Shown: piece after piece, positions 2,790 through 64,000 of the stretch
Layout of the letters: each line of letters opens with the position of its first letter
Position numbering within the stretch: the stretch's first letter is position 1
DNA from: Escherichia coli
GTDB lineage: Bacteria > Pseudomonadota > Gammaproteobacteria > Enterobacterales > Enterobacteriaceae
DNA length: 64,000 nt
Assembly: GCF_016903815.1 (NCBI RefSeq)
Contig: NZ_CP069973.1
Reading direction: 5' to 3' (one strand)
Position numbers and translations under genes: made by a program
Notes under the pieces: generated by a model
What the model was told of the DNA's origin: nothing
Databases searched by the model: none
The model's input: only the letters and a program-made list of their open reading frames with translations

Positions 2790-3520
2790 TCTTCTCTGCC
2801 GCTTTTTTTGTGCACAGAAAACCCCCAGCTAGGCTGGGGGTTCCGGAAAGCTTTCAGCTTTAAGCCAGTTATTAAAACCCCTTTTGATTTGTTAAAACAC
2901 CTTGCGGTCTGGCAACTGCAAGTGTCAAACAAGAAATCAAAAGGGGGTCCCAATGGGGAACGAAAAGAGCTTAGCGCACACCCGATGGAACTGTAAATAT
3001 CACATAGTTTTTGCGCCAAAATACCGAAGACAGGTGTTCTACAGAGAGAAGCGTAGAGCAATAGGCAGTATTTTGAGAAAGCTGTGTGAGTGGAAAAGTG
3101 TACGGATTCTGGAAGCTGAATGCTGTGCAGATCATATCCATATGCTTGTGGAGATCCCGCCCAAAATGAGCGTATCCGGCTTTATGGGATATCTGAAAGG
3201 GAAAAGCAGTCTGATGCTTTACGAGCAGTTTGGTGATTTGAAATTCAAATACAGGAACAGGGAGTTCTGGTGCAGAGGGTACTACGTCGATACGGTGGGT
3301 AAGAACACGGCGAAGATACAGGATTACATAAAGCACCAGCTTGAAGAGGATAAAATGGGAGAGCAGTTATCGATTCCCTATCCGGGCAGCCCGTTTACGG
3401 GCCGTAAGTAACGAAGTTGGATGCAAATGTCAGATCGTGTGCGCCTGTTAGGGCGCGGCTGGTAAGAGAGCCTTATAGGCGCATTTGAAAAACCTCCGGC
3501 TATGCCGGAGGATATTTATT
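2790..3520 (+). mobile_element. IS200 (IS200/IS605 family) insertion sequence, boundaries approximate
   Basis: Perfect hairpin cccccagctagctggggg (about 2822-2843), a second long stem-loop ccccttttgatt...aatcaaaagggggt spanning the tnpA ribosome-binding site, a 152 aa Y1 transposase and a right-end hairpin (cctccggctatgccggagg); the nagE-glnS spacer is about 0.7 kb longer than I recall for K-12. Confidence 0.85.
2953..3411 (+). CDS. tnpA: IS200 transposase TnpA (HUH/Y1 family)
   Basis: Translation MGNEKSLAHTRWNCKYHIVFAPKYRRQVFY...HIHMLVEIPP... with the HxH (HUH) motif; near-identical to Salmonella IS200 TnpA as I recall it. The ORF-track entry starts upstream at 2902; the ATG at 2953 is the homologous start. 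Confidence 0.9.
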   Translation: MGNEKSLAHTRWNCKYHIVFAPKYRRQVFYREKRRAIGSILRKLCEWKSVRILEAECCADHIHMLVEIPPKMSVSGFMGYLKGKSSLMLYEQFGDLKFKYRNREFWCRGYYVDTVGKNTAKIQDYIKHQLEEDKMGEQLSIPYPGSPFTGRK

Positions 3521-10979: not shown

Positions 10980-12620
10980 ATGGCAATCCACAATCGTGCA
11001 GGCCAACCTGCACAACAGAGTGATTTGATTAACGTCGCCCAACTGACGGCGCAATATTATGTACTGAAACCAGAAGCAGGGAATGCGGAGCACGCGGTGA
11101 AATTCGGTACTTCTGGTCACCGTGGCAGTGCAGCGCGCCACAGCTTTAACGAGCCGCACATTCTGGCGATCGCTCAGGCAATTGCTGAAGAACGTGCGAA
11201 AAACGGCATCACTGGCCCTTGCTATGTGGGTAAAGATACTCACGCTCTGTCCGAGCCTGCGTTCATTTCCGTACTGGAAGTGCTGGCAGCGAACGGCGTA
11301 GATGTTATTGTGCAGGAAAACAATGGCTTCACTCCGACGCCTGCCGTTTCCAATGCCATCCTGGTTCACAATAAAAAAGGTGGCCCGCTGGCAGACGGTA
11401 TCGTGATTACACCGTCCCATAACCCGCCGGAAGATGGTGGTATCAAGTACAATCCGCCAAATGGTGGCCCGGCTGATACCAACGTCACCAAAGTGGTGGA
11501 AGACAGGGCCAACGCACTGATGGCCGATGGCCTGAAAGGCGTGAAGCGTATCTCCCTCGACGAAGCGATGGCATCCGGTCATGTGAAAGAGCAGGATCTG
11601 GTGCAGCCGTTCGTGGAAGGGCTGGCCGATATCGTTGATATGGCGGCGATTCAGAAAGCGGGCCTGACGCTGGGCGTTGATCCGTTGGGCGGTTCCGGTA
11701 TCGAATACTGGAAGCGCATTGGCGAGTATTACAACCTCAACCTGACCATCGTTAACGATCAGGTCGATCAAACCTTCCGCTTTATGCACCTCGATAAAGA
11801 CGGTGCGATCCGTATGGACTGCTCCTCCGAGTGTGCGATGGCGGGCCTGCTGGCACTGCGTGATAAGTTCGATCTGGCGTTTGCTAACGACCCGGATTAT
11901 GACCGTCACGGTATCGTCACTCCGGCAGGTTTGATGAATCCGAACCACTACCTGGCGGTGGCGATCAACTACCTGTTCCAGCATCGTCCGCAGTGGGGCA
12001 AAGATGTTGCTGTCGGTAAAACGCTGGTTTCATCTGCGATGATCGACCGTGTGGTCAATGACTTGGGCCGTAAGCTGGTAGAAGTCCCGGTAGGTTTCAA
12101 ATGGTTTGTTGATGGTCTGTTCGACGGCAGCTTCGGCTTTGGCGGCGAAGAGAGCGCAGGGGCTTCCTTCCTGCGTTTCGACGGCACGCCGTGGTCCACC
12201 GACAAAGACGGCATCATCATGTGTCTGCTGGCGGCGGAAATCACCGCTGTCACCGGTAAGAACCCGCAGGAACACTACAACGAACTGGCAAAACGCTTTG
12301 GTGCGCCGAGCTACAACCGTTTGCAGGCAGCTGCGACTTCCGCACAAAAAGCGGCGTTGTCTAAGCTGTCTCCGGAAATGGTGAGCGCCAGCACCCTGGC
12401 AGGTGACCCGATCACCGCGCGCCTGACTGCGGCACCGGGCAATGGTGCTTCTATCGGCGGTCTGAAAGTGATGACTGACAACGGCTGGTTCGCCGCGCGT
12501 CCGTCAGGCACGGAAGACGCGTACAAGATTTATTGCGAAAGCTTCCTCGGTGAAGAGCATCGCAAGCAGATCGAGAAAGAAGCGGTTGAGATTGTTAGCG
12601 AAGTTCTGAAAAACGCGTAA
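10980..12620 (+). CDS. pgm: phosphoglucomutase
   Basis: 546 aa [12 protein letters not shown]...; active-site TSGHR (TPSHNP family) motifs; seqA-pgm arrangement as in E. coli. Confidence 0.95.
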
Positions 12621-12633
12621 ACACATTAAATAA

Positions 12634-12667
12634 GAAAAAGGGCGGTCGGAAGATCGCCCTTTTTTGC
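12634..12667. terminator. bidirectional terminator between pgm and potE
   Basis: Hairpin aagggcggtcggaagatcgccctt flanked by A- and T-runs. Confidence 0.7.
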
Positions 12668-12676
12668 TTTTCTTAA

Positions 12677-13996
12677 TTAACCGTGTTTATTTTTCAGTTC
12701 AAAGCGTGGTGAGACCAGACCATACAGTGTCCAACCGAGGAAGGTCACGATGGAACCGTATAGCATGGCTTCTTCCCCGGATGAGTACAGCGCATAAAAG
12801 CTGTACATCGCGCCAACAAAAGCAACAAAGTTTGCAACTTTCGCTTTTGAGGGGGGCACATTAGCGACCTTCTGAATAATGACTAATGCCGCCATTGACA
12901 GAATATACGGAATGATATTGGTCACCACGGCCAGGTTAACCAGCACGTTGAACTGACTGTTTAGCGACGGGCTAATCGTCATCAGCGCCAACCCGCTCTG
13001 GATAATCACAATGGTCAACATTCCCTGCACCGGTGCATCCACTTTGGTTACACGGGAGAAAATTTTAGGGAAGTAGCCTTCATCAGATGAAGATTTAAAC
13101 ACCTGGGCAATGGTGAACTGCCAGCCAAGCAGCGAACCGCAGCAGGACATCACCATCAGCGCCATAATGACTTTACCCACTTCTGGCGTGAACATCTGTG
13201 CGAAGGCCAGGCCAAATGGTGCCGTTGAATTTGCCAGCTCCATATTAGGCACAATCCCTGCAATCACGTTGGTGGAGACGATATAAATCACCGCCGCACC
13301 TAACGTACCGCCGAGTACCGCGATTGGCACATTACGTTCCGGGTTTTCCACTACATCAGTATTCGCACACGCAGACTCCAGACCAAGAAAAGCCCACAGC
13401 GTCATAGCGATGGAAGAACCTACCGCACTGAAGAACGGTGCATGATGCGGATTCCAGGAATCAACGTAAAGCGTCGGGCTAAACCAGAACCAGCCGATAA
13501 CGCACAGGCCTACCACCGGAATAATGACCCCCCACACGGTAATGCTACTGATTTGCCCGGTAATGCGCGCACCACCAAAGTTAGCCACGGTACAAATCCA
13601 CAGCACCCCGATGGTCGCAAGACCAATCTGCACTGGCGACAAACTCGCGCCGAGCAGTTCGGTGCCGTAACCAACCGCCGAAATAGCAATCGCGACGTTA
13701 GCAATTAGCAGTGAGACGCCGTAGGTATAGTTCGCCATAAAGTTCCCGGATTTACCGAAAGCATACTCCGCATAACCGCCCATACCGCCTGATTTACGGC
13801 TGAACATACCGCATTTTGCGAATGCCCATGCCAGTGCCATTGAGCCTACGGCTGTCACCAGCCAGGAAATAATTGAGATTGTCCCGACTTCGGCAAGCTT
13901 TGTCGGCAGCATGATGATACCGGAGCCCATCATGTTGACCATCGTCAGTATGGTTAACTGAACGACGCCCATTTTGTTCGATTTAGCCTGACTCAT
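12677..13996 (-). CDS. potE: putrescine-ornithine antiporter
   Basis: 439 aa polytopic APC-family transporter; its start overlaps the speF stop (ATGA). Confidence 0.95.
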   Translation of the reverse strand: MSQAKSNKMGVVQLTILTMVNMMGSGIIMLPTKLAEVGTISIISWLVTAVGSMALAWAFAKCGMFSRKSGGMGGYAEYAFGKSGNFMANYTYGVSLLIANVAIAISAVGYGTELLGASLSPVQIGLATIGVLWICTVANFGGARITGQISSITVWGVIIPVVGLCVIGWFWFSPTLYVDSWNPHHAPFFSAVGSSIAMTLWAFLGLESACANTDVVENPERNVPIAVLGGTLGAAVIYIVSTNVIAGIVPNMELANSTAPFGLAFAQMFTPEVGKVIMALMVMSCCGSLLGWQFTIAQVFKSSSDEGYFPKIFSRVTKVDAPVQGMLTIVIIQSGLALMTISPSLNSQFNVLVNLAVVTNIIPYILSMAALVIIQKVANVPPSKAKVANFVAFVGAMYSFYALYSSGEEAMLYGSIVTFLGWTLYGLVSPRFELKNKHG

Positions 13997-16191
13997 AATT
14001 TTTCCCCTTTCAACAGGGTGCTTTGCGCATCACGAGGCTTGATGACATAGCACCAAACTTGCTTACGACCATCATGTTCTTCGATATAGACACCCTGCAG
14101 CTCCGGTGCAAAACCTGGCAGCAGGTTGATCCCTTCTTCCAGAGCGCTGAAGTAACGCAAAACAGCACCACCCCAGATTTCACCCGGAACAACACACAGC
14201 ACACCCGGAGGATAAGGAAGCGCACCTTCGGCAGCGATACGGCCTTCTGCATCCGGCAGACGAACCAGCTCCACTTCACCGCGTAAATAGGCGTAGTTAG
14301 CTTCTTGCGGATTCATGCTGACGCGTGGGAAGTGTTCCTTACGGAACATCTCTTTTTGCAGTTGTTTCACGTTGTGGCGGGCATACAAATCATGCATTTC
14401 CTGGCACAACTGACGAAGGGTATAACCGGCGTAGCGCTCTTCATGCTGTTTGTAGATGGAAGGTAGCACTTCCGCCAGCGGCGCATCAGATTCCAGCAGT
14501 TTTTCGAAGCGTACCAGCAGGGCAACAAGTTGCTGAAGTTTGGCCATATCCTCCGCCGGAGTCAGCAGGAAGAGGATGGAGTTAAGATCGCATTTTTCCG
14601 GCACTACGCCATTTTCGCGCAGGAAGTTAGCAAGAATCGTCGCGGGTACACCGAATGTTTCATATTCGCCGTTACGTGCATCAATACCTGGGGTTGTCAG
14701 CAACAGTTTGCAAGGATCGACAAAGTATTGATTCTCTGCATAGCCTTCAAAAGAATGCCAGTGTTCCCCTGGTACAAACTGGAAGAAGCGCAGATCAACC
14801 GCAATTTGCGCTGTTTCATACGACTGCCAGGGTTTACCATCCACCAGTTCAGGTACGAACGGACGAATATGCTGACAGTTATCGAGGATCAGTTTGCGGG
14901 CATTAATGCCATTTACCACACAATCCATCCACATATTACGACCGCTGACACCTTCATGCATTTTGGCGTTGATATCCAGTGCGGCAAACAGCGGATAGAA
15001 CGGGCTGGTGGAGGCGTGCATCATAAAGGCGTTGTTCATGCGTTTGTGCGGTACATAACGCTGTTGCCCTTTGATGTGGCTGTCTTTTTTATGGATTTGT
15101 GAAGTTTGAGAAAAACCAGCCTGCTGTTTATGTACGGATTGCGTAACCAGAATACCCGGATCGTTCTCATTAAGATCCAGCAACAGCGGCGAACAGTCAG
15201 CCATCATCGGGATAAATTGCTCATAGCCGACCCATGCGGAGTCAAACAGAATGTAGTCACACAGATGACCAATTTTATCCACCACCTGGCGGGCGTTATA
15301 AATCGTACCGTCGTAGGTGCCTAACTGAATCACAGCGAGGCGGAAAGGACGAGCCTCTTTTGCCCGCTGCGGTGCGACTTCCGCGATCAGCTCACGCAGG
15401 TAACTTTCTTCAAAACAATGCGCATCAATGCCACCGATAAAGCCATACGGGTTACGTGCCGTTTCCAGATAAACCGGTGTTGCACCAGCCTGTAGCAACG
15501 CTCCGTGGTGGTTAGATTTGTGGTTATTGCGATCAAACAGCACCAGATCACCCGGTGTTAGCAGGGCGTTTAAAACCACTTTGTTAGAAGATGAAGTGCC
15601 ATTTAGAACGAAGTATGTTTTATCGGCATTAAACACTTTTGCCGCATGTTGCTGTGCAATGCATGGCGCGCCTTCGTGAATCAGCAGATCGCCCATTGCC
15701 ACATCCGCGTTGCATAAGTCGGAACGGAACAGCGTTTCTCCGAAGTACTCCACGAACTGATTCCCTGCCGGATGACGACGGAAAAACTCACCTCCCTGAT
15801 GACCCGGGCAGTCAAAAGCGCTATTGCCCTGATTGACATAATCGACCAGTGCGCGGAAGAAGGGCGGGCGCAGTTGCGTTTCATAATGGCTAGCAGCGGT
15901 TTCTAACTGACGTCCATAAAACTCTTTCCGTGATTCGCAATGCTCGAAGACACCAGAAATACGTGGCAGATATTCTGCTGGTACACGTTCTTCATTTGCC
16001 GTTGCAATAAAAACAGGAATGCCATAGCCAGTAGCGTCTATTTCATCGAGTTTTCCACGTTCAACATCATTGACTGATAAAATAATGGCGGCAACGTCAA
16101 TATAATTACTTTCGTCAATATTCACGCATGCACGATGAGTGGAAAAACAATCCGGGCAAGAACGGCTAACGGCAATTTTTAATTCTGACAT
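13993..16191 (-). CDS. speF: inducible ornithine decarboxylase
   Basis: About 732 aa PLP-dependent decarboxylase (start MSELKIAVS...); an in-frame ATG three codons upstream (16200) is an alternative start. Confidence 0.92.
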   Translation of the reverse strand: MSELKIAVSRSCPDCFSTHRACVNIDESNYIDVAAIILSVNDVERGKLDEIDATGYGIPVFIATANEERVPAEYLPRISGVFEHCESRKEFYGRQLETAASHYETQLRPPFFRALVDYVNQGNSAFDCPGHQGGEFFRRHPAGNQFVEYFGETLFRSDLCNADVAMGDLLIHEGAPCIAQQHAAKVFNADKTYFVLNGTSSSNKVVLNALLTPGDLVLFDRNNHKSNHHGALLQAGATPVYLETARNPYGFIGGIDAHCFEESYLRELIAEVAPQRAKEARPFRLAVIQLGTYDGTIYNARQVVDKIGHLCDYILFDSAWVGYEQFIPMMADCSPLLLDLNENDPGILVTQSVHKQQAGFSQTSQIHKKDSHIKGQQRYVPHKRMNNAFMMHASTSPFYPLFAALDINAKMHEGVSGRNMWMDCVVNGINARKLILDNCQHIRPFVPELVDGKPWQSYETAQIAVDLRFFQFVPGEHWHSFEGYAENQYFVDPCKLLLTTPGIDARNGEYETFGVPATILANFLRENGVVPEKCDLNSILFLLTPAEDMAKLQQLVALLVRFEKLLESDAPLAEVLPSIYKQHEERYAGYTLRQLCQEMHDLYARHNVKQLQKEMFRKEHFPRVSMNPQEANYAYLRGEVELVRLPDAEGRIAAEGALPYPPGVLCVVPGEIWGGAVLRYFSALEEGINLLPGFAPELQGVYIEEHDGRKQVWCYVIKPRDAQSTLLKGEKL

Positions 16192-16500: not shown

Positions 16501-16605
16501 CTAGCGGGCATTAAAGAAATGAAAGTCAAAACTATTACGATGGGCAAACTTCATGATATGGGTTGTCCGCCTTATATGAGGCATTAAGCGGTTATTATTT
16601 TCCAT
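16501..16605 (-). CDS. speFL: speFL, ornithine-sensing ribosome-arrest leader peptide of the speF-potE operon
   Basis: Direct reverse-strand translation: MENNNRLMPHIRRTTHIMKFAHRNSFDFHFFNAR (34 aa), closely matching the leader peptide I recall (HIRRTTHIMKFAHRNSFDFHFFNAR core); about 300 nt upstream of speF. Absent from the ORF track because it is under 60 aa. Confidence 0.85.
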   Translation of the reverse strand: MENNNRLMPHIRRTTHIMKFAHRNSFDFHFFNAR

Positions 16606-16799
16606 TTACCTTTACCTCTTGCTGTGTCAGTTGAAGGTAGAGTTATTCTATCCATGAAATGGCTATAATCTGTGAAGAAGATCAACAAAAAACGATCATA
16701 CCCCAGATAATAAATCATTAATTATGAATATTGCCATATTAGATGCTGTTTTGTTACTTAAATGTTGTAATTTTGTGTTTTATATTTGCGTTAAGAAAT

Positions 16800-16836: not shown

Positions 16837-16879
16837 TAATAAATTAATCACTATTAAAGCGAATTTATTGAATAACAAT

Positions 16880-17557
16880 TCAAAGCATAAACCGATACCC
16901 AATACCGGTTTCAGTAATGAAATGGCGGGGGCGAGCGGGATCCTGTTCCAGTTTTTGTCGCAGATGTCCCATATAAATACGCAAATAATGACTGTGTTCG
17001 ACCGCGTTTGGCCCCCACACCTGGTTAAGGAGCTGGCGCTGGGTGAGCACTTTTCCGGCATTGTTGAGCAGCACCGCCAGCAGGCGAAACTCAATTGGTG
17101 TGAGATGCACCTCTTCCTCACCGCGATGGATCACGCGGGCGGCTAAATCGACGGTAACATCGGAAAATTTCACCAGCGGATCGGGCGCAGCGGTGGCGGA
17201 GTGGCGACGTAAAGCGACGCGCAGACGGGCCTGCAATTCGCCAATGCCAAACGGCTTACTCAGGTAATCATCCGCTCCGGCATCCAGCGCGGCGATTTTG
17301 TCGCTCTCTTCGCTGCGTGCGGAAAGCACAATCACTGGCACTGCGCTCCACTGGCGCAGGTCGCGGATAAACTCAATCCCATCACCATCGGGCAGGCCGA
17401 GATCGAGAATAATCAAATCTGGCTTACGGGTAGCCGCTTCCAGCAAGCCGCGTTGCAGCGTTTCGGCCTCATAGACGCGCATCCCGTCGCCCTCCAGCGC
17501 CGTGCGCAGAAAGCGACGAATAGCCTGTTCATCTTCAACAATCAGAACGTTTGTCAC
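16880..17557 (-). CDS. kdpE: two-component response regulator KdpE (OmpR family)
   Basis: 225 aa; receiver domain (VEDEQ...DLGLPDGDG) plus winged-helix output domain. Confidence 0.95.
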   Translation of the reverse strand: MTNVLIVEDEQAIRRFLRTALEGDGMRVYEAETLQRGLLEAATRKPDLIILDLGLPDGDGIEFIRDLRQWSAVPVIVLSARSEESDKIAALDAGADDYLSKPFGIGELQARLRVALRRHSATAAPDPLVKFSDVTVDLAARVIHRGEEEVHLTPIEFRLLAVLLNNAGKVLTQRQLLNQVWGPNAVEHSHYLRIYMGHLRQKLEQDPARPRHFITETGIGYRFML

Positions 17558-25410: not shown

Positions 25411-28400
25411 ATGAGTGGAAAACCGGCGGCGCGTCAGGGCGACATGACGCAGTATGGCGGTAGCATTGTCCAGGGTTCAGCCGGGGTGCGCATCGGTGCC
25501 CCCACCGGCGTGGCCTGTTCGGTGTGCCCCGGCGGGGTGACGTCCGGCCATCCGGTCAATCCGCTGCTCGGCGCGAAGGTCCTTCCCGGAGAAACCGACC
25601 TTGCCCTGCCCGGCCCGCTGCCGTTCATCCTCTCCCGCACCTACAGCAGTTACCGGACAAAAACGCCCGCGCCGGTGGGGAGCCTCGGCCCCGGCTGGAA
25701 AATGCCTGCGGATATCCGCTTACAGCTGCGCGATAACACACTGATACTCAGTGATAACGGCGGCAGAAGCCTGTATTTTGAGCACCTGTTTCCCGGTGAG
25801 GACGGTTACAGCCGCAGCGAGTCACTCTGGCTGGTGCGCGGCGGTGTCCTGAAACTGGATGAAGGTCACCGGCTGGCCGCACTCTGGCAGGCGCTGCCGG
25901 AAGAACTCCGCTTAAGTCCGCATCGTTATCTGGCGACGAACAGTCCGCAGGGGCCGTGGTGGGTACTCGGCTGGTGTGAGCGGGTGCCGGAGGCGGATGA
26001 GGTGCTGCCTGCGCCGCTGCCGCCGTACCGGGTACTGACCGGGCTGGTGGACCGCTTCGGGCGCACACAGACGTTCCACCGTGAGGCTGGCGGCGAAATC
26101 ACCGGCGTGACGGATGGTGCCGGGCGTCACTTCCGGCTGGTACTGACCACGCAGGCGCAGCGGGCAGAAGAAGCCCGGCAGCAGGCCTCTTCCGGCGGGA
26201 CGGAACCGTCCGCTTTTCCTGATACCCTGCCGGGTTACACCGAATATGGCCGGGACAACGGCATCCGTCTGTCTGCCGTGTGGCTGACGCACGACCCGGA
26301 ATACCCGGAGAATTTACCTGCCGCGCCGCTGGTGCGCTATGGCTGGACGCCACGCGGCGAACTGGCGGCGGTGTATGACCGCAGCAATACACAGGTGCGC
26401 AGCTTTACTTACGATGATAAATACCGGGGCCGGATGGTGGCGCACCGTCACACGGGCCGGCCGGAAATCCGTTACCGTTACGACAGCGACGGGCGGGTGA
26501 CAGAACAGCTAAACCCGGCAGGCTTAAGCTACACGTATCAGTATGAGAAAGACCGCATCACCATCACCGACAGTATGGACCGCCGTGAAGTGCTGCACAC
26601 GCAGGGCGAAGGCGGGCTGAAGCGGGTGGTGAAAAAGGAACACGCGGACGGCAGCGTCACGCAGAGTCAGTTTGATGCGGTGGGCAGGCTTAAGGCACAG
26701 ACGGATGCCGCAGGCCGGACGACTGAGTACAGCCCGGATGTGGTGACGGGACTCATCACGCGCATCACCACACCGGATGGCAGGGCATCGGCATTTTACT
26801 ATAACCACCACAACCAGTTAACGTCAGCCACCGGGCCTGACGGGCTGGAAATACGCCGGGAATATGATGAATCCGGCCGTCTGATTCAGGAAACCGCACA
26901 CAACGGCGATATCACCCGCTACCGTTATGATAATCCACACAGTGACTTACCCTGCGCAACGGAAGATGCCACCGGCAGCCGGAAAACCATGACATGGAGC
27001 CGTTACGGTCAGTTGCTGACCGTCACTGACTGTTCCGGTTATGTAACCCGTTATGACCATGACCGTTTTGGTCAGGTGACGGCGGTGCACCGCGAGGAAG
27101 GGCTGAGTCAGTACCGCGCATACGACAGCCGTGGACAGTTAATTGCGGTGAAAGACACGCAGGGCCATGAAACGCGGTATGAATACAACGCCGCCGGTGA
27201 CCTGACCGCCGTCATTGCCCCGGACGGCAGCAGAAACGGGACACAGTACGATGCGTGGGGAAAGGCCATCCGTACCACACAGGGCGGTCTGACGCGCAGT
27301 ATGGAATACGATGCTGCCGGACGGGTCATCCGCCTGACCAGTGAAAACGGCAGCCACACCACCTTCCGTTACGATGTACTCGACCGGCTGATACAGGAAA
27401 CCGGCTTTGACGGCCGCACACAGCGTTATCACCACGACCTGACCGGCAAACTTATCCGCAGCGAGGATGAGGGGCTGGTCACCCACTGGCACTATGACGA
27501 AGCAGACCGCATCACACAGCGAACGGTGAATGGTGAAACCGCAGAACAGTGGCGGTACGACGAACGCGGCTGGCTGACACAAATCAGCCATCTCAGCGAA
27601 GGCCACCGGGTGACGGTGCATTACGGGTATGATGAGAAAGGCCGCCTGACCGGTGAGCGCCAGACGGTGCATCACCCGCAGACGGAAGCACTGCTCTGGC
27701 AGCATGAAACCAGACACGCTTACAACGCGCAGGGACTGGCGAACCGCTGTATACCGGACAGCCTGCCCGCCGTGGAATGGCTGACTTACGGCAGCGGCTG
27801 GCTGGCAGGCATGAAACTCGGCGACACACCGCTGGTGGATTTCACCCGCGACCGCCTGCACCGGGAAACGCTGCGCAGCTTCGGCCGTTATGAACTCACC
27901 ACCGCTTATACCTCTGCCGGGCAGTTACAGAGCCAGCACCTGAACAGCCTGCAGTATGACCGCGATTACACCTGGAACGACAACGGCGAACTCATCCGCA
28001 TCAGCAGCCCGCGCCAGACCCGGAGTTACAGCTACAGCGACACCGGCAGGCTGACCGGCGTCCACACCACGGCAGCGAACCTTGATATCCGCATCCCGTA
28101 TGCCACGGACCCGGCGGGCAACCGCCTGCCCGACCCGGAGCTGCACCCGGACAGCCCCCTCAGCGCATGGCCGGATAACCGTATCGCCCGTGACGCGCAC
28201 TATCTTTACCGGTATGACCGTCACGGCAGGCTGACGGAGAAAACCGACCTCATCCCGGAAGGGGTTATCCGCACGGATGATGAGCGGACTCACCGGTACC
28301 ATTACGACAGCCGGCACCGGCTGGTGCACTACACGCGGACACAATATGCAGAGCCGCTGGTCGAAAGTCGCTATCTTTACGACCTGCTGGGCCGCAGGGT

Positions 28401-29550
28401 GGCAAAACGGGTATGGCGGCGTGAACGGGACCTGACGGGCTGGATGTCGCTGTCATGGAAACCGGAAGTGCCCTGGTACGGCTGGGACGGCGACCGGCTG
28501 ACCACAATACAGAACGACAGAACCCGCATCCAGACGGTTTATCAGCCGGGGAGCTTCACGCCACTCATCAGAGTTGAAACTGCCACCGGTGAGCTGGCGA
28601 AAACGCAGCGCCGCAGCCTGGCGGATGCGCTTCAGCAGTCCGGCGGTGAAGACGGTGGCAGTGTGGTGTTCCCGCCGGTGCTGGTGCAGATGCTCGACCG
28701 GCTGGAAAGTGAAATCCTGGCTGACCGGGTGAGTGAGGAAAGCCGCCGCTGGCTGGCATCGTGCGGCCTGACGGTGGAGCAGATACAAAACCAGATGGAC
28801 CCGGTGTACACGCCGGCGCGAAAAATCCACCTGTACCACTGCGACCATCGCGGCCTGCCGCTGGCGCTTGTCAGCACGGAAGGGGCAACAGAATGGTGCG
28901 CAGAATACGATGAATGGGGCAACCTGCTGAATGAAGAGAACCCGCATCAGCTGCAGCAGCTCATCCGCCTGCCGGGTCAGCAGTATGATGAGGAGTCCGG
29001 CCTGTATTACAACCGCCACCGCTATTATGACCCGCTGAAGGGGCGGTATATCACTCAGGATCCGATTGGACTGAAGGGGGGATGGAATTTTTATCAGTAT
29101 CCGTTAAATCCGATCTCAGAGATAGACCCACAAGGGTTAAATCCGTTAATTCTTAGTGTTGTAGCACTGATGAGTTGCGGTTTGTTTTCATCAGGTGGTG
29201 TTATCCAAAGTGGGCAACAACGCAGAGATCAATATGGCCGTAAAGTTAATCCAGAAGCCGACAAATTAACAGATGAACATAAGTCAGGTGTAAATCCTGG
29301 TGGTAACTGTAGTCCCCAGAACCTGAGTGACTTACAAAATGAAAAAAACAGATTATGTAACCAGTCTAGAGCTTGCGCTCCTCAGATGCTGAGAAAAGAA
29401 ATATTGAGACGGTACGAGATAAATTTGGCGTGCGCTTCGGTCAGAAAGCAGATTAATAATCAGTGCTTTGGTGGTGGAGATAAGGCCCATATGGAAGAAG
29501 AGAATAAAGCATATAAAACAGCAGCTGATTGCAGTGGCTTAATAAAATGA
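25411..29550 (+). CDS. rhsC: Rhs-family polymorphic toxin: YD-repeat shell, PxxxxDPxGL core boundary, variable C-terminal tip
   Basis: 1379 aa; GC-rich YD/RHS repeat core with an N-terminal region close to K-12 RhsC as I recall it; core ends at ...[14 protein letters not shown] (about 29139), followed by a roughly 136 aa AT-rich tip. Confidence 0.9.
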
Positions 29551-30050
29551 AAAAAATAATTTTCTCTAACGAGAGTGCAGTCTATGATGAACTTATGATT
29601 CATTTCCCATGCCAGCCATTACCTCATATTTCAAATGATATTACAGGGCTGGAGGAACTGGATATTGTATATAATTTTTTCCAAAAGAAACAATGGAATG
29701 AAATAGCCAACAATTTTAAAATAAAGGATGACTCTTATGCTTTAGAGTTAGGAATTACATTCCTCCCTGAGAAAGTATTCTGCTATTACATCCCTCTGTA
29801 TATTTATGCCTCGTTGTTTAATAAGAATGATTTTTGGGTTTTTGAATCCGATTTTATTCAACAATATTTATGTCCTGAGTATCGGGATCACGATGATTTT
29901 TTGAATTTTGTTTTTAATTTTTCAGATATACAACTATCTATTATTGCACAGTTTATGTCTTATGAATCAGACGCTGGATTCTTTTATGCAAGTAAAGCTT
30001 GTATGGATTTTTGGGAAGATTATTCACCTCTATTACATAAGAAAATTTAA
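29547..30050 (+). CDS. putative cognate Rhs immunity protein
   Basis: 167 aa ORF ([20 protein letters not shown]...) whose ATG overlaps the rhsC stop (ATGA); AT-rich like the toxin tip; the position and coupling are typical of rhsI genes. An in-frame ATG at 29529 is an alternative start. Confidence 0.6.
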
Positions 30051-30102
30051 TCGTAAAAGGTATAAATGGTTTAATAAAAAACTTGTCTACTCGTTGGAGT
30101 AG

Positions 30103-30720
30103 ATGAAAAATAAGATGACGTTGGCATATAGATCACTGCGAATAATCCACCTCTACCACTGCGACTATCGCGGCCTGCCGCTGACGCTTATCAGCCCTGA
30201 CGGGGCAACAGAATGGTGCGCAGAATATGATGAATGGGGCAACCTGCTGACTGAAGAGAACCCGCAGCACCTGCAGCAGCTTATCCGTCTGCCGGGGCAG
30301 CAGTATGATGAGGAGTCCGGCCTGTATTACAACCGCCACCGCTATTATGACCCGCTGCAGGGGCGGTGTATCACTCAGGATCCGATTGGGCTGGAAGGCG
30401 GGTGGAATCAGTATGTATATGCTTCCATACATCCAACCTATTCTATTGATCCGCTGGGCTTAATTGATAAACCTGCTCCAGTATTCAATCGAGAACTAAA
30501 TTCAGATGCGTATTATCTTGCCGTAAATAATTGCTATTCATATGCTCTAAATAGGTATGGAAATCCTGGGAGTAGGATTTTTGGCGGCGGAGGATTACAA
30601 CCTGGAGAATTATCTGGAAAAGAGTTTTCTAAACTCACTTGTAGTAGTATTTTTGAAGCGTCAAAAAATGATGGTGCCAAGGACAGGGAAAGATCATCAG
30701 AAGTACACTTTTTGTACTAA
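30103..30720 (+). other. orphan Rhs C-terminal tip fragment (core-end homology plus an alternative toxin domain); lacks the Rhs core and a credible start of its own
   Basis: Translation ...[35 protein letters not shown]...[17 protein letters not shown]...IDPLGL then an unrelated 85 aa tail; nucleotides 30141-30408 are about 92% identical to rhsC 28821-29088 by eye. Confidence 0.8.
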
Positions 30721-30759
30721 ATAATTCGCATTTTATGTTTAAAAATTGAGATATTCCTC

Positions 30760-31700
30760 ATTACCTGAAGCTGTTTTTTATTGCTTATACATGATCAAAT
30801 ACTCCTTACATAATTAAGGAGAACAAAATGGAACTTAAAAAATTGATGGAACATATTTCTATTATCCCCGATTACAGACAAGCCTGGAAAGTGGAACATA
30901 AATTGTCGGATATTCTACTGTTGACTATTTGTGCCGTTATTTCTGGTGCAGAAGGCTGGGAAGATATAGAGGATTTTGGGGAAACACATCTCGATTTTTT
31001 GAAGCAATATGGTGATTTTGAAAATGGTATTCCTGTTCACGATACCATTGCCAGAGTTGTATCCTGTATCAGTCCTGCAAAATTTCACGAGTGCTTTATT
31101 AACTGGATGCGTGACTGCCATTCTTCAGATGATAAAGGCGTCATTGCAATTGATGGAAAAACGCTCCGGCACTCTTATGACTAGAGTCGCCGCAGGGGAG
31201 CGATTCATGTCATTAGTTCGTTCTCAACAATGCACAGTCTGGTCATCGGACAGATCAGGACGGATGAGAAATCCAATGAAATTACAGCTATCCCTGAACT
31301 TCTTAACATGTTGGATATTAAAGGAAAAATTATCACAACTGATGCGATGGGTTGCCAGAAAGATATCGCAGAGAAGATACAAAAACAGGGCGGTGATTAT
31401 TTATTCGCTGTAAAAGGAAACCAGGGGCGGCTAAATAAAGCCTTTGAGGAAAAGTTTCCGCTGAAAGAATTAAATAATCCAGAGCATGGCAGTTACGCAA
31501 TGAGTGAAAAGAGTCACGGCAGAGAAGAAATCCGTCTTCACATTGTTTGCGATGTCCCTGATGAACTTATTGATTTCACGTTTGAATGGAAAGGGCAGCC
31601 ATGGACAGAAACTACCTGACGTCAGTCCTTGCGGGGAGCGGGCTTTCGTAATCTTGCCCTGCTACAACAGGATTAACTTCACAAATATCATTTCCCAACG
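30760..31700 (+). mobile_element. H-repeat (ISAs1-family) element remnant, boundaries approximate
   Basis: Encodes an H-repeat-associated transposase-like protein ([57 protein letters not shown]...), as found beside Rhs elements in E. coli. Confidence 0.75.
30828..31619 (+). pseudogene. H-repeat-associated (ISAs1 family) transposase, disrupted
   Basis: Two same-frame ORFs (30828-31184 and 31230-31619) separated by an in-frame TAG at 31182-31184; the 3' part is shortened relative to full-length H-rpt proteins as I recall them, with the conserved C-terminal MDRNYL...SVLAGSGLS segment in a different frame after 31610. Confidence 0.75.
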
Positions 31701-63111: not shown

Positions 63112-64000
63112 TTACCCCTTAAACGTTAACCACGGTCGAAATCTGACCGCTGGCTGAATTAATCCGGCTTCTTGTTGGGCTTCGATAACCGGACCAATAT
63201 CTTTATAAGCCGCTGGCGCTTCTTCAAGACGTCGTTCTTCACGCAATGTGACGCATTGCCACGGCAGCGTTGACTCTTCAGTCGCGCTTGAGCGCATGGC
63301 CTGTCGACGCTGGCTGCGTCCTGCTCCGTGACTGCATGACCACAGCCACTCCGGGTTGCCGCAACCGACTGCAAGCCACGAATAATCGCCCATTGAACCG
63401 GGGATTAATGCCAGATCGCCCACTCGTGCCGGTGTTGCACCTTTGCGATGAATATTCATTTCATGCTCGCGAAGGATGATGTTATGTGGTACATCCACCA
63501 CCAGATGCGAATTGTCCTGATGAAAGAGATTGGCGAGACATACGCGCACCATTTCGGCAATTGTGACGCGATTTAACCACGCGTAACGCGCCGCCATTCC
63601 TATCGCTTGTAGATATTCCTCCGCCAGTCCGCCTGCCAGACCATATAACCCGCTTTGTGGATGTTTATGTCCGGTGGGCCATTCAGCACGGGCGCGATCC
63701 ATCCAGCGTCTTCCGACGTAAAAGCCAACATCTCGCGATCCACTGTGGATCATCACCACAATATCGCCTGTTTTCAGCCCTTGTTGCCAGGCTACATGGC
63801 GATCAACCACGCTATCAACGACCTGAAGTTCAATAAAATGATTACCTGAACCCGGCGTACCCAGACAAGGATCGCGGAGTAATGCGCGGTCCGTTGCCAG
63901 CAGGGCGGGTGGGGCATAACGCGAATGACTGTTATGCTCGTTAAGCCCAATGCAGCGGTCAATCTCTTGTACCATTCGGGGGATATTCGTGCGTGTCCAG
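63112..64000 (-). CDS. RtcB-family RNA ligase paralogue, C-terminal part; the N-terminus lies beyond the window end
   Basis: Translation contains RtcB signatures GSGNHF, HSGSR, IPGSMG and CSHGAGR and ends ...RPWLTFKG, parallel to canonical E. coli RtcB as I recall it; the minus-strand frame is open to the window edge. Confidence 0.75.
   Translation of the reverse strand, partial: WTRTNIPRMVQEIDRCIGLNEHNSHSRYAPPALLATDRALLRDPCLGTPGSGNHFIELQVVDSVVDRHVAWQQGLKTGDIVVMIHSGSRDVGFYVGRRWMDRARAEWPTGHKHPQSGLYGLAGGLAEEYLQAIGMAARYAWLNRVTIAEMVRVCLANLFHQDNSHLVVDVPHNIILREHEMNIHRKGATPARVGDLALIPGSMGDYSWLAVGCGNPEWLWSCSHGAGRSQRRQAMRSSATEESTLPWQCVTLREERRLEEAPAAYKDIGPVIEAQQEAGLIQPAVRFRPWLTFKG

Follow-up and report, generated by a model that had tools for sequence, protein, structure and literature searches.

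The junction between pgm and potE in the Escherichia coli DNA analyzed here (a stretch of 64,000 nucleotides, hereafter the window) raises the question of whether so short an interval results from the loss of genes that K-12 carries at this place, or whether the K-12 genes are the later addition. The first-pass annotation described pgm and the convergent potE as separated by 56 bp, and these coordinates are exact, with pgm ending at 12620 and potE at 12677. The features of the locus are the following.

10980..12620, + strand: pgm, phosphoglucomutase, 546 aa, stop codon TAA at 12618-12620 (ORF list, TIGR01132)
12621..12676, unstranded: 56-bp intergenic spacer between the convergent pgm and potE stops, without REP/BIME and without an ORF
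12632..12639, unstranded: A-rich run AAGAAAAA, read in the potE direction as the U-tract UUUUUCUU that follows the hairpin (sequence, folds)
12637..12669, unstranded: unit of ~33 bp, AAGGGCG...CCCTTTTTT[G/A]CTT, present in two copies (T1, T2) in BIME-bearing genomes
12640..12659, unstranded: hairpin core GGGCGGTC-GGAA-GATCGCCC, T1 allele (folds, terminator scan, allele comparison)
12660..12665, + strand: T-tract TTTTTT, the U-tract for pgm-direction termination (sequence, scan)
12677..13996, - strand: potE, putrescine-ornithine antiporter, 439 aa (NF007938, TIGR04299; annotation of strain 7/2)
13993..16191, - strand: speF, inducible ornithine decarboxylase, in an operon with potE (coordinates transferred from strain 7/2)
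16501..16605, - strand: speFL, leader peptide gene 5' of speF (annotation transferred from strain 7/2)
16880..17557, - strand: kdpE, whose 3'-terminal 145 bp (16879-17023) are duplicated and decayed in the K-12 type

In a profile search, Pgm matched the TIGR01132 equivalog with 1073.6 bits against a cut-off of 778, and the gene is annotated as pgm in the near-identical strain 7/2. PotE (NF007938, 856 bits; TIGR04299, 849.6 bits) and SpeF (TIGR04301, 1436 bits) likewise scored above the curated cut-offs. The window is 100% identical to strain 7/2 over 32205-64000 and differs from it at 58 positions elsewhere. The potE stop codon, TAA, is read as its complement TTA at 12677-12679, and the spacer between the two stops has the order ACACATTAAATAAGAAAAA-GGGCGGTC-GGAA-GATCGCCC-TTTTTT-GCTTTTCTTAA. 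A motif search found no REP palindromes (of the GCCGGATG / GCCTGATGCG type) in 12621-12676, and the 56 bp do not hold the ybfP and DUF2625 genes that mark the K-12-type allele between pgm and potE. The second terminator seen in other genomes (T2, with the loop ATTCA) is absent from the window, in which the sole hairpin match is 12640-12659, of the T1 type. Also absent is a 3' remnant of kdpE beside potE, the only match in the window to that remnant being kdpE itself (16879-17023). The insertion site, empty in the window, lies at the right edge of the ~33-bp unit, and most alignments of non-compact junctions break at 12665-12669.

The K-12 form of the interval is indeed much longer. The first-pass annotation had named ybfP and a ybfG/ybfH pseudogene between pgm and potE in K-12, and both are there: in a K-12-type chromosome of serotype O16:H48 (L001), the two stops are 1747 bp apart, against 56 bp in the window, and MG1655/K-12 records (H41, H89, H92) match the extra DNA of this chromosome at 100%. 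A K-12 junction as compact as that of the window was looked for by alignment and was not found. The annotated features of the K-12 type are a 164-aa lipoprotein (ybfP; no Pfam family matched its product), a DUF2625 gene interrupted by an internal stop (the pseudogene ybfG/ybfH) and a fragment labelled winged helix-turn-helix; BL21(DE3) (L002) has the same layout, also of 1747 bp, with an intact DUF2625 gene. The description of the extra DNA as small genes is correct for ybfP and ybfG/ybfH but incomplete, because the ~1.69 kb also include a BIME, another copy of the terminator and, as a dead 145-bp duplicate, the 3' end of kdpE, in the order pgm-T1-BIME(REP1-REP2-X)-ybfP-ybfG-spacer-'kdpE(145 bp)-half REP-X'-T2-potE. 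The hairpin region of the window aligns at both edges of this DNA, with terminator T1 beside pgm (GGGCGGTCGCAAGATCGCCC) and T2 beside potE (GGGCGATCATTCAATCGCCC). X forms the end of a BIME unit that is dispersed, REP1-REP2-X with the same ends being found between entD and fepA as well. The winged helix-turn-helix fragment (L001 8022-8166) is the kdpE copy, 90.3% identical to the resident kdpE and 89.7% to window positions 16879-17023 (blastn). It differs from the resident gene at 14 of 144 positions, contains an in-frame stop and is fused to a half REP. A query with the islet (L001:6545-8207) gave no full-length counterpart in compact genomes, and the literature searched on ybfP and ybfG contained nothing on a pgm-potE polymorphism.

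To what extent the window departs from the species as a whole is shown by 5426 complete E. coli genomes, which were searched with a 1056-bp probe across the junction, counted as contiguous when at least 80% of it was covered in one place; 3196 genomes (59%) were contiguous by this measure. With the counts obtained from targeted and synthetic probes, the arrangements are as follows.

Type A, pgm-T1-potE, the arrangement of the window: about 3194 genomes
Type A', pgm-T1-BIME-T2-potE: 2 genomes (N96 and R32_14_1F)
Type B, the K-12 type: about 1848 genomes
Type C+, pgm-T1-BIME-ybfP-ybfG-kdpE, without speFL-speF-potE: 3 genomes (CUWW10, GF4-3 and KL53)
Type C, pgm-T1-BIME-ybfP'-REPs-kdpE: 254 genomes
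Type D, pgm-T1-BIME-kdpE: about 100 genomes

A shorter junction probe, of 133 bp, was covered to at least 80% in 3159 genomes. The compact form includes CFT073, O157:H7 and HUSEC2011, as well as strain 7/2, which is 100% identical to the window across the junction. Seven compact junctions that we compared (the window, CFT073, O157:H7, HUSEC2011, JS316, MS1170 and 19AR0253) all have the same junction and the T1 hairpin, and differ from one another by lineage SNPs only. The whole speFL-speF-potE operon, which is acid-inducible, is missing in about 357 of the 5426 genomes (6.6%; types C, C+ and D, represented by L003, L093, L094, L096, L097 and L098). In these operon-less genomes, and in the additional locus L012, pgm is followed by the BIME with or without ybfP and ybfG, and then by kdpE, a layout that resembles the pgm-kdpE adjacency of many Enterobacterales. 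Three divergent sub-variants of type B (K-12; KN12-1; E06 with 181.1) share the truncation point of the kdpE remnant as well as substitutions and, therefore, type B arose once. In E06 and 181.1 (L092 1736-2650, L095), an IS200C copy lies just after the T-run of T1 (…CCCTTTTTT joined to GTGCACAG…), and this IS200C-bearing sub-variant also has an internal deletion in ybfG. Judged by these alignments, the interval from pgm to the kdp operon is polymorphic for insertions and deletions, with several alleles, and the window has the common one, which contains neither islet nor BIME.

The direction of change was assessed in a scan of species-representative genomes with the C-terminus of Pgm, in which at least 80 loci were mapped by tblastn; the outgroups are a single genome of E. 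albertii and a small number of other genera, with E. fergusonii, E. marmotae, E. ruysiae and Salmonella outside the loci listed. The genomes in which pgm abuts potE are E. albertii (L011, with a 57-bp spacer), Citrobacter sp. FP75 (L015) and Cedecea neteri (L024); the spacers in these outgroups are about 50-75 bp long, each with a single GC-rich hairpin. In many other Enterobacterales among the loci listed, pgm abuts kdpE. Neither YbfP nor YbfG had a match, even at E <= 1e-2, among the 80 outgroup loci listed, and the closest relatives of YbfG outside E. coli are only 50-57% identical. Together, the adjacency of pgm and potE in the outgroups and the lack of ybfP and ybfG there indicate that Escherichia and its relatives inherited this gene order from their ancestor and that the K-12 ybfP-ybfG pair is a derived insertion. 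The first-pass annotation was right that the genes are absent here, but the absence should not be taken for a strain-specific loss: the compact junction is the majority allele, and its gene order is shared with the outgroups.

Several other observations were made on these loci. The gap 3' of pgm contains unrelated, lineage-specific ORFs in Kluyvera, Enterobacter, Superficieibacter, Pluralibacter and Yersinia (L016 10598-11688, L017 10598-12674, L019, L052 and L042), so that the junction downstream of pgm is a general insertion hot spot in Enterobacterales. In Pseudocitrobacter faecalis (L013 10669-12822) and in 'Escherichia sp. ESNIH1' (L018 10664-12817), a gene resembling ornithine decarboxylase, 80-82% identical to SpeF, directly follows pgm, with no potE in between. 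Locus L012 (NZ_JAATUR010000017.1, labelled E. coli SCPM-O-B-8794) is 94-95% identical to the window over 13 kb, compared to 91% for E. albertii, and therefore represents a divergent Escherichia lineage; its arrangement is pgm-T1-BIME-kdpE, with an E. albertii-like left flank.

Overall, we consider it very probable that the window carries the common allele free of islet and BIME, with the ancestral gene order and one terminator-type hairpin, and that the additional K-12 DNA is derived, by recombination. The reverse history, in which the strain or its immediate clone recently lost ybfP-ybfG from a K-12-like ancestor, appears highly improbable. The T1/T2 direct repeats of the K-12 type would permit a precise deletion yielding exactly this junction, but the same junction is present in 59% of the genomes, across unrelated lineages, and E. 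albertii is compact too; furthermore, the SNPs of the junction vary by lineage, so the allele is old, and the right flank in the window, GCTTTTCTTAA, matches no sampled T2 flank. Still more remote is an assembly artefact, in which a REP/BIME or a duplicated terminator collapsed and real DNA is hidden. Short direct repeats of the kind that could be collapsed do exist at this locus in other strains, but an identical compact junction is found in thousands of independently assembled complete genomes, CFT073 and O157:H7 among them, and the perfect identity of strain 7/2 across the junction speaks against this as well.

The anatomy of the K-12 type suggests how it might have originated. It is probably the product of one recombination between two haplotypes still extant in E. 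coli, which would yield exactly this arrangement: a potE-less one with the arrangement pgm-T1-BIME-ybfP-ybfG-kdpE (type C+) and one with the arrangement pgm-T1-BIME-T2-potE (type A'). The left joint, on the pgm side, would be homologous, within pgm-T1-BIME, and the right joint would be illegitimate, connecting nucleotide 145 of kdpE to a REP (REP2). Both proposed parental arrangements were found, C+ in 3 genomes and A' in 2. The C+ genomes could in principle be derivatives rather than ancestors. A simple deletion from the K-12 type, through a crossover of its kdpE remnant with the intact gene, was considered as their source and is not supported: the kdpE 3' end of CUWW10 has 0 of the 14 remnant-specific bases and, therefore, the crossover would need to fall within the first 18 bp.

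Three further candidates were discarded. The 43-bp repeat X/X' was considered as the terminal repeats of a mobile ybfP-ybfG islet, but X is the dispersed BIME end also present between entD and fepA. Relatives of YbfG with 88-89% identity, which might have pointed to a donor species, proved to come from E. coli-like assemblies with other variants of the K-12 type. Finally, KN12-1 and E06 have a divergent potE beside T2, 6.5-8.7% away from the other E. coli compared over the 780 bp of potE adjoining T2, but this is weak as proof of an introgressed islet, the 3' end of potE being a general mosaic. Indeed, comparison of window positions 12677-13476 with L091, L092, L095, L008 and L009 reveals a recombination mosaic of deeply diverged allele blocks. 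In KN12-1 and E06, the divergence nears the E. albertii distance by the junction and then drops to normal; deep allele blocks of potE also occur in the compact genomes MS1170 and 19AR0253.

The hairpin in the spacer had been described as one bidirectional terminator. In the pgm direction, a GC-rich stem-loop followed by a U-tract lies between the convergent stop codons, as in intrinsic terminators. The 68-nt region of the + strand RNA folds with -21.6 kcal/mol (z = -4.55, with 0 of 200 shuffles as stable), and the hairpin region of the - strand RNA with -18.9 kcal/mol (z = -2.81, 2 of 200 shuffles as stable). A consensus terminator scan made a call on the + strand only, at 12634-12665, with 14 pairs, 6 of them G-C. 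One position of the T1 stem pairs as a G.U wobble in pgm-direction RNA but is mismatched, A.C, in potE-direction RNA, which explains the strand-specific call; the hairpin with its immediate flanks has -21.4 kcal/mol in the pgm direction versus -15.6 in the potE direction. Transcripts in the potE direction do have the U-tract UUUUUCUU, here after a stem interrupted by the A.C mismatch. Since one flank is an A-run and the other a T-run, the hairpin can structurally serve both directions, and we predict that it could terminate transcription in both, more strongly for pgm than for potE. The earlier description thus stands with regard to a single hairpin that is plausible both ways, but the element is asymmetric, and the scan supports the + strand only. 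Rfam searches of the spacer on both strands gave no family at the gathering threshold; MicX was the only match, with 23.9 and 23.7 bits against a threshold of 75, and these sub-threshold matches at the hairpin are a chance resemblance to a terminator.

Whether the exact junction, as opposed to the gene order, descended without interruption is a separate matter. The hairpin of E. albertii, GGGCGATCATTCGATCGCCC, is one base away from T2 and five from T1, whereas compact E. coli junctions all have T1, so that the exact junction need not have come down without interruption; an old re-compaction and an uninterrupted ancestral compact state are, in our assessment, about equally probable. If descent was uninterrupted, the compact junction would have persisted while its hairpin changed to T1, and T2 would have entered later, perhaps together with the divergent potE tract seen in KN12-1 and E06. 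Under the alternative, to which we give an even chance, a BIME would have been inserted long ago with duplication of the ~33-bp terminator, T1 would have drifted while serving pgm only, and a deletion between T1 and T2 would then have removed the BIME, plus the islet if present, making the junction of the window secondary. Like our main explanation, this alternative takes the gene order as ancestral and the genes of K-12 as derived.

In addition to the E. albertii hairpin, several lines of evidence favor such a re-compaction. T1 adjoins pgm in every haplotype (A, A', B, C, C+ and D), including the 94-95% identical lineage of L012. No compact E. coli junction with the T2 loop was found in the 5426 genomes, the best full-length match to a synthetic compact junction with T2 being 95.5% and, therefore, T2 occurs only where the BIME occurs. 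In N96 (L104 1613-1823) and R32_14_1F (L105), a complete BIME/REPIN lies between direct terminator repeats of ~33 bp, and this BIME has the same termini as the entD-fepA copy, which makes T1 and T2 around it look like a target (flanking) duplication. The G in the T1 stem, which pairs as G.U for pgm and leaves A.C for potE, is as expected of a terminator serving pgm alone, and the T1 of N96 retains the ancestral stem A. On the other side, the original compact allele would have to be gone from E. coli, and the founding event has no known mechanism, given that mobility by Y1-transposases (RAYT, IS200/IS605-type) makes no target duplication (PMC3333891). T2 could instead have come with the divergent potE tract of KN12-1 and E06 (6.5-8.7% over 780 bp), and the direction of the hairpin change is read from one E. 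albertii genome only. The complete proposition, namely that a BIME/REPIN insertion duplicated the ~33-bp terminator and that a compact junction, now dominant in the species, later re-formed without a scar, we put forward tentatively, as slightly less probable than its negation.

Some other parts of the window also vary or carry mobile elements. An IS200C transposase gene (IS200/IS605 family; annotation from strain 7/2) lies at 2953-3411, between nagE and glnS. An Rhs element occupies 25411-31595 and consists of a core gene (25411-29550), a small ORF 3' of it, an orphan Rhs fragment and an ISAs1 (ybfD) pseudogene; the core gene, at 26793-28925, accounts for 57 of the 58 positions at which strain 7/2 differs, a clustering that points to exchange between Rhs copies or to a difference in assembly. 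An ORF for a hypothetical protein of 44 aa (WP_001299172.1 in strain 7/2), at 16584-16718, overlaps the start of speFL on the same strand. After mngB, a gene of the RtcB family runs from 63112 to 64000, where it is cut by the end of the window; at this place K-12 presumably has cydA, and the mngB-RtcB junction may be another strain-variable one.

The compact pgm-potE junction is thus an ordinary majority allele, annotated alike in thousands of genomes and known in kind. The additions made here are minor: the K-12 remnant is a dead end of kdpE, six arrangements coexist, and the terminator is duplicated around the BIME. K-12 does not represent the reference state here; its ybfP and ybfG belong to the accessory genes and are missing from most E. 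coli, a point that is useful wherever the K-12 annotation serves as a template but has little import for biology at large. The locus offers a small, tidy case of diversification of an intergenic junction, in which the K-12 form can be rebuilt from two rare arrangements. Of some wider interest are only the duplication of a whole terminator on either side of a BIME and the possible role of terminators as end points of deletions: if the re-compaction is true, duplicated terminators would be built-in excision sites, making intergenic insertions reversible.

The window and the K-12 interval b0688-b0692 have pgm, potE, speF, speFL and kdpE in the same order and orientation, and their T1 hairpins are nearly identical, one loop base apart; unlike K-12, the window lacks the BIME, ybfP, the DUF2625 pseudogene, the kdpE remnant, the half REP and T2. 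The convergent pgm and potE with one hairpin between an A-run and a T-run are shared with E. albertii, Citrobacter sp. FP75 and Cedecea neteri, but the E. albertii stem is perfect, with the loop ATTCG (T2 type) and nearly equal stabilities in both directions (-22.6 and -24.4 kcal/mol). Bidirectional terminators between convergent genes of E. coli are, in the account given in 10.1101/2022.10.23.513370 (citing Ju et al. 2019), a prevalent class defined by mapping of transcript 3' ends, with ynaJ-uspE as an example, and its members are said there to be unlike intrinsic terminators (10.1101/2022.10.23.513370). The element in the window resembles this class in being a single hairpin between convergent genes, placed for both 3' ends, but differs from it in that it looks like a canonical intrinsic terminator on the + strand. 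Finally, as in the presence/absence polymorphism of REP/BIME elements, or REPINs (PMC3333891; PMC3116915), the alleles of this locus differ by a complete REP1-linker-REP2 unit whose ends match those of another copy in the genome; here, however, the filled alleles flank the BIME with a ~33-bp duplication of the whole terminator, not an expected product of Y1-transposase mobility, and the window represents the empty site.
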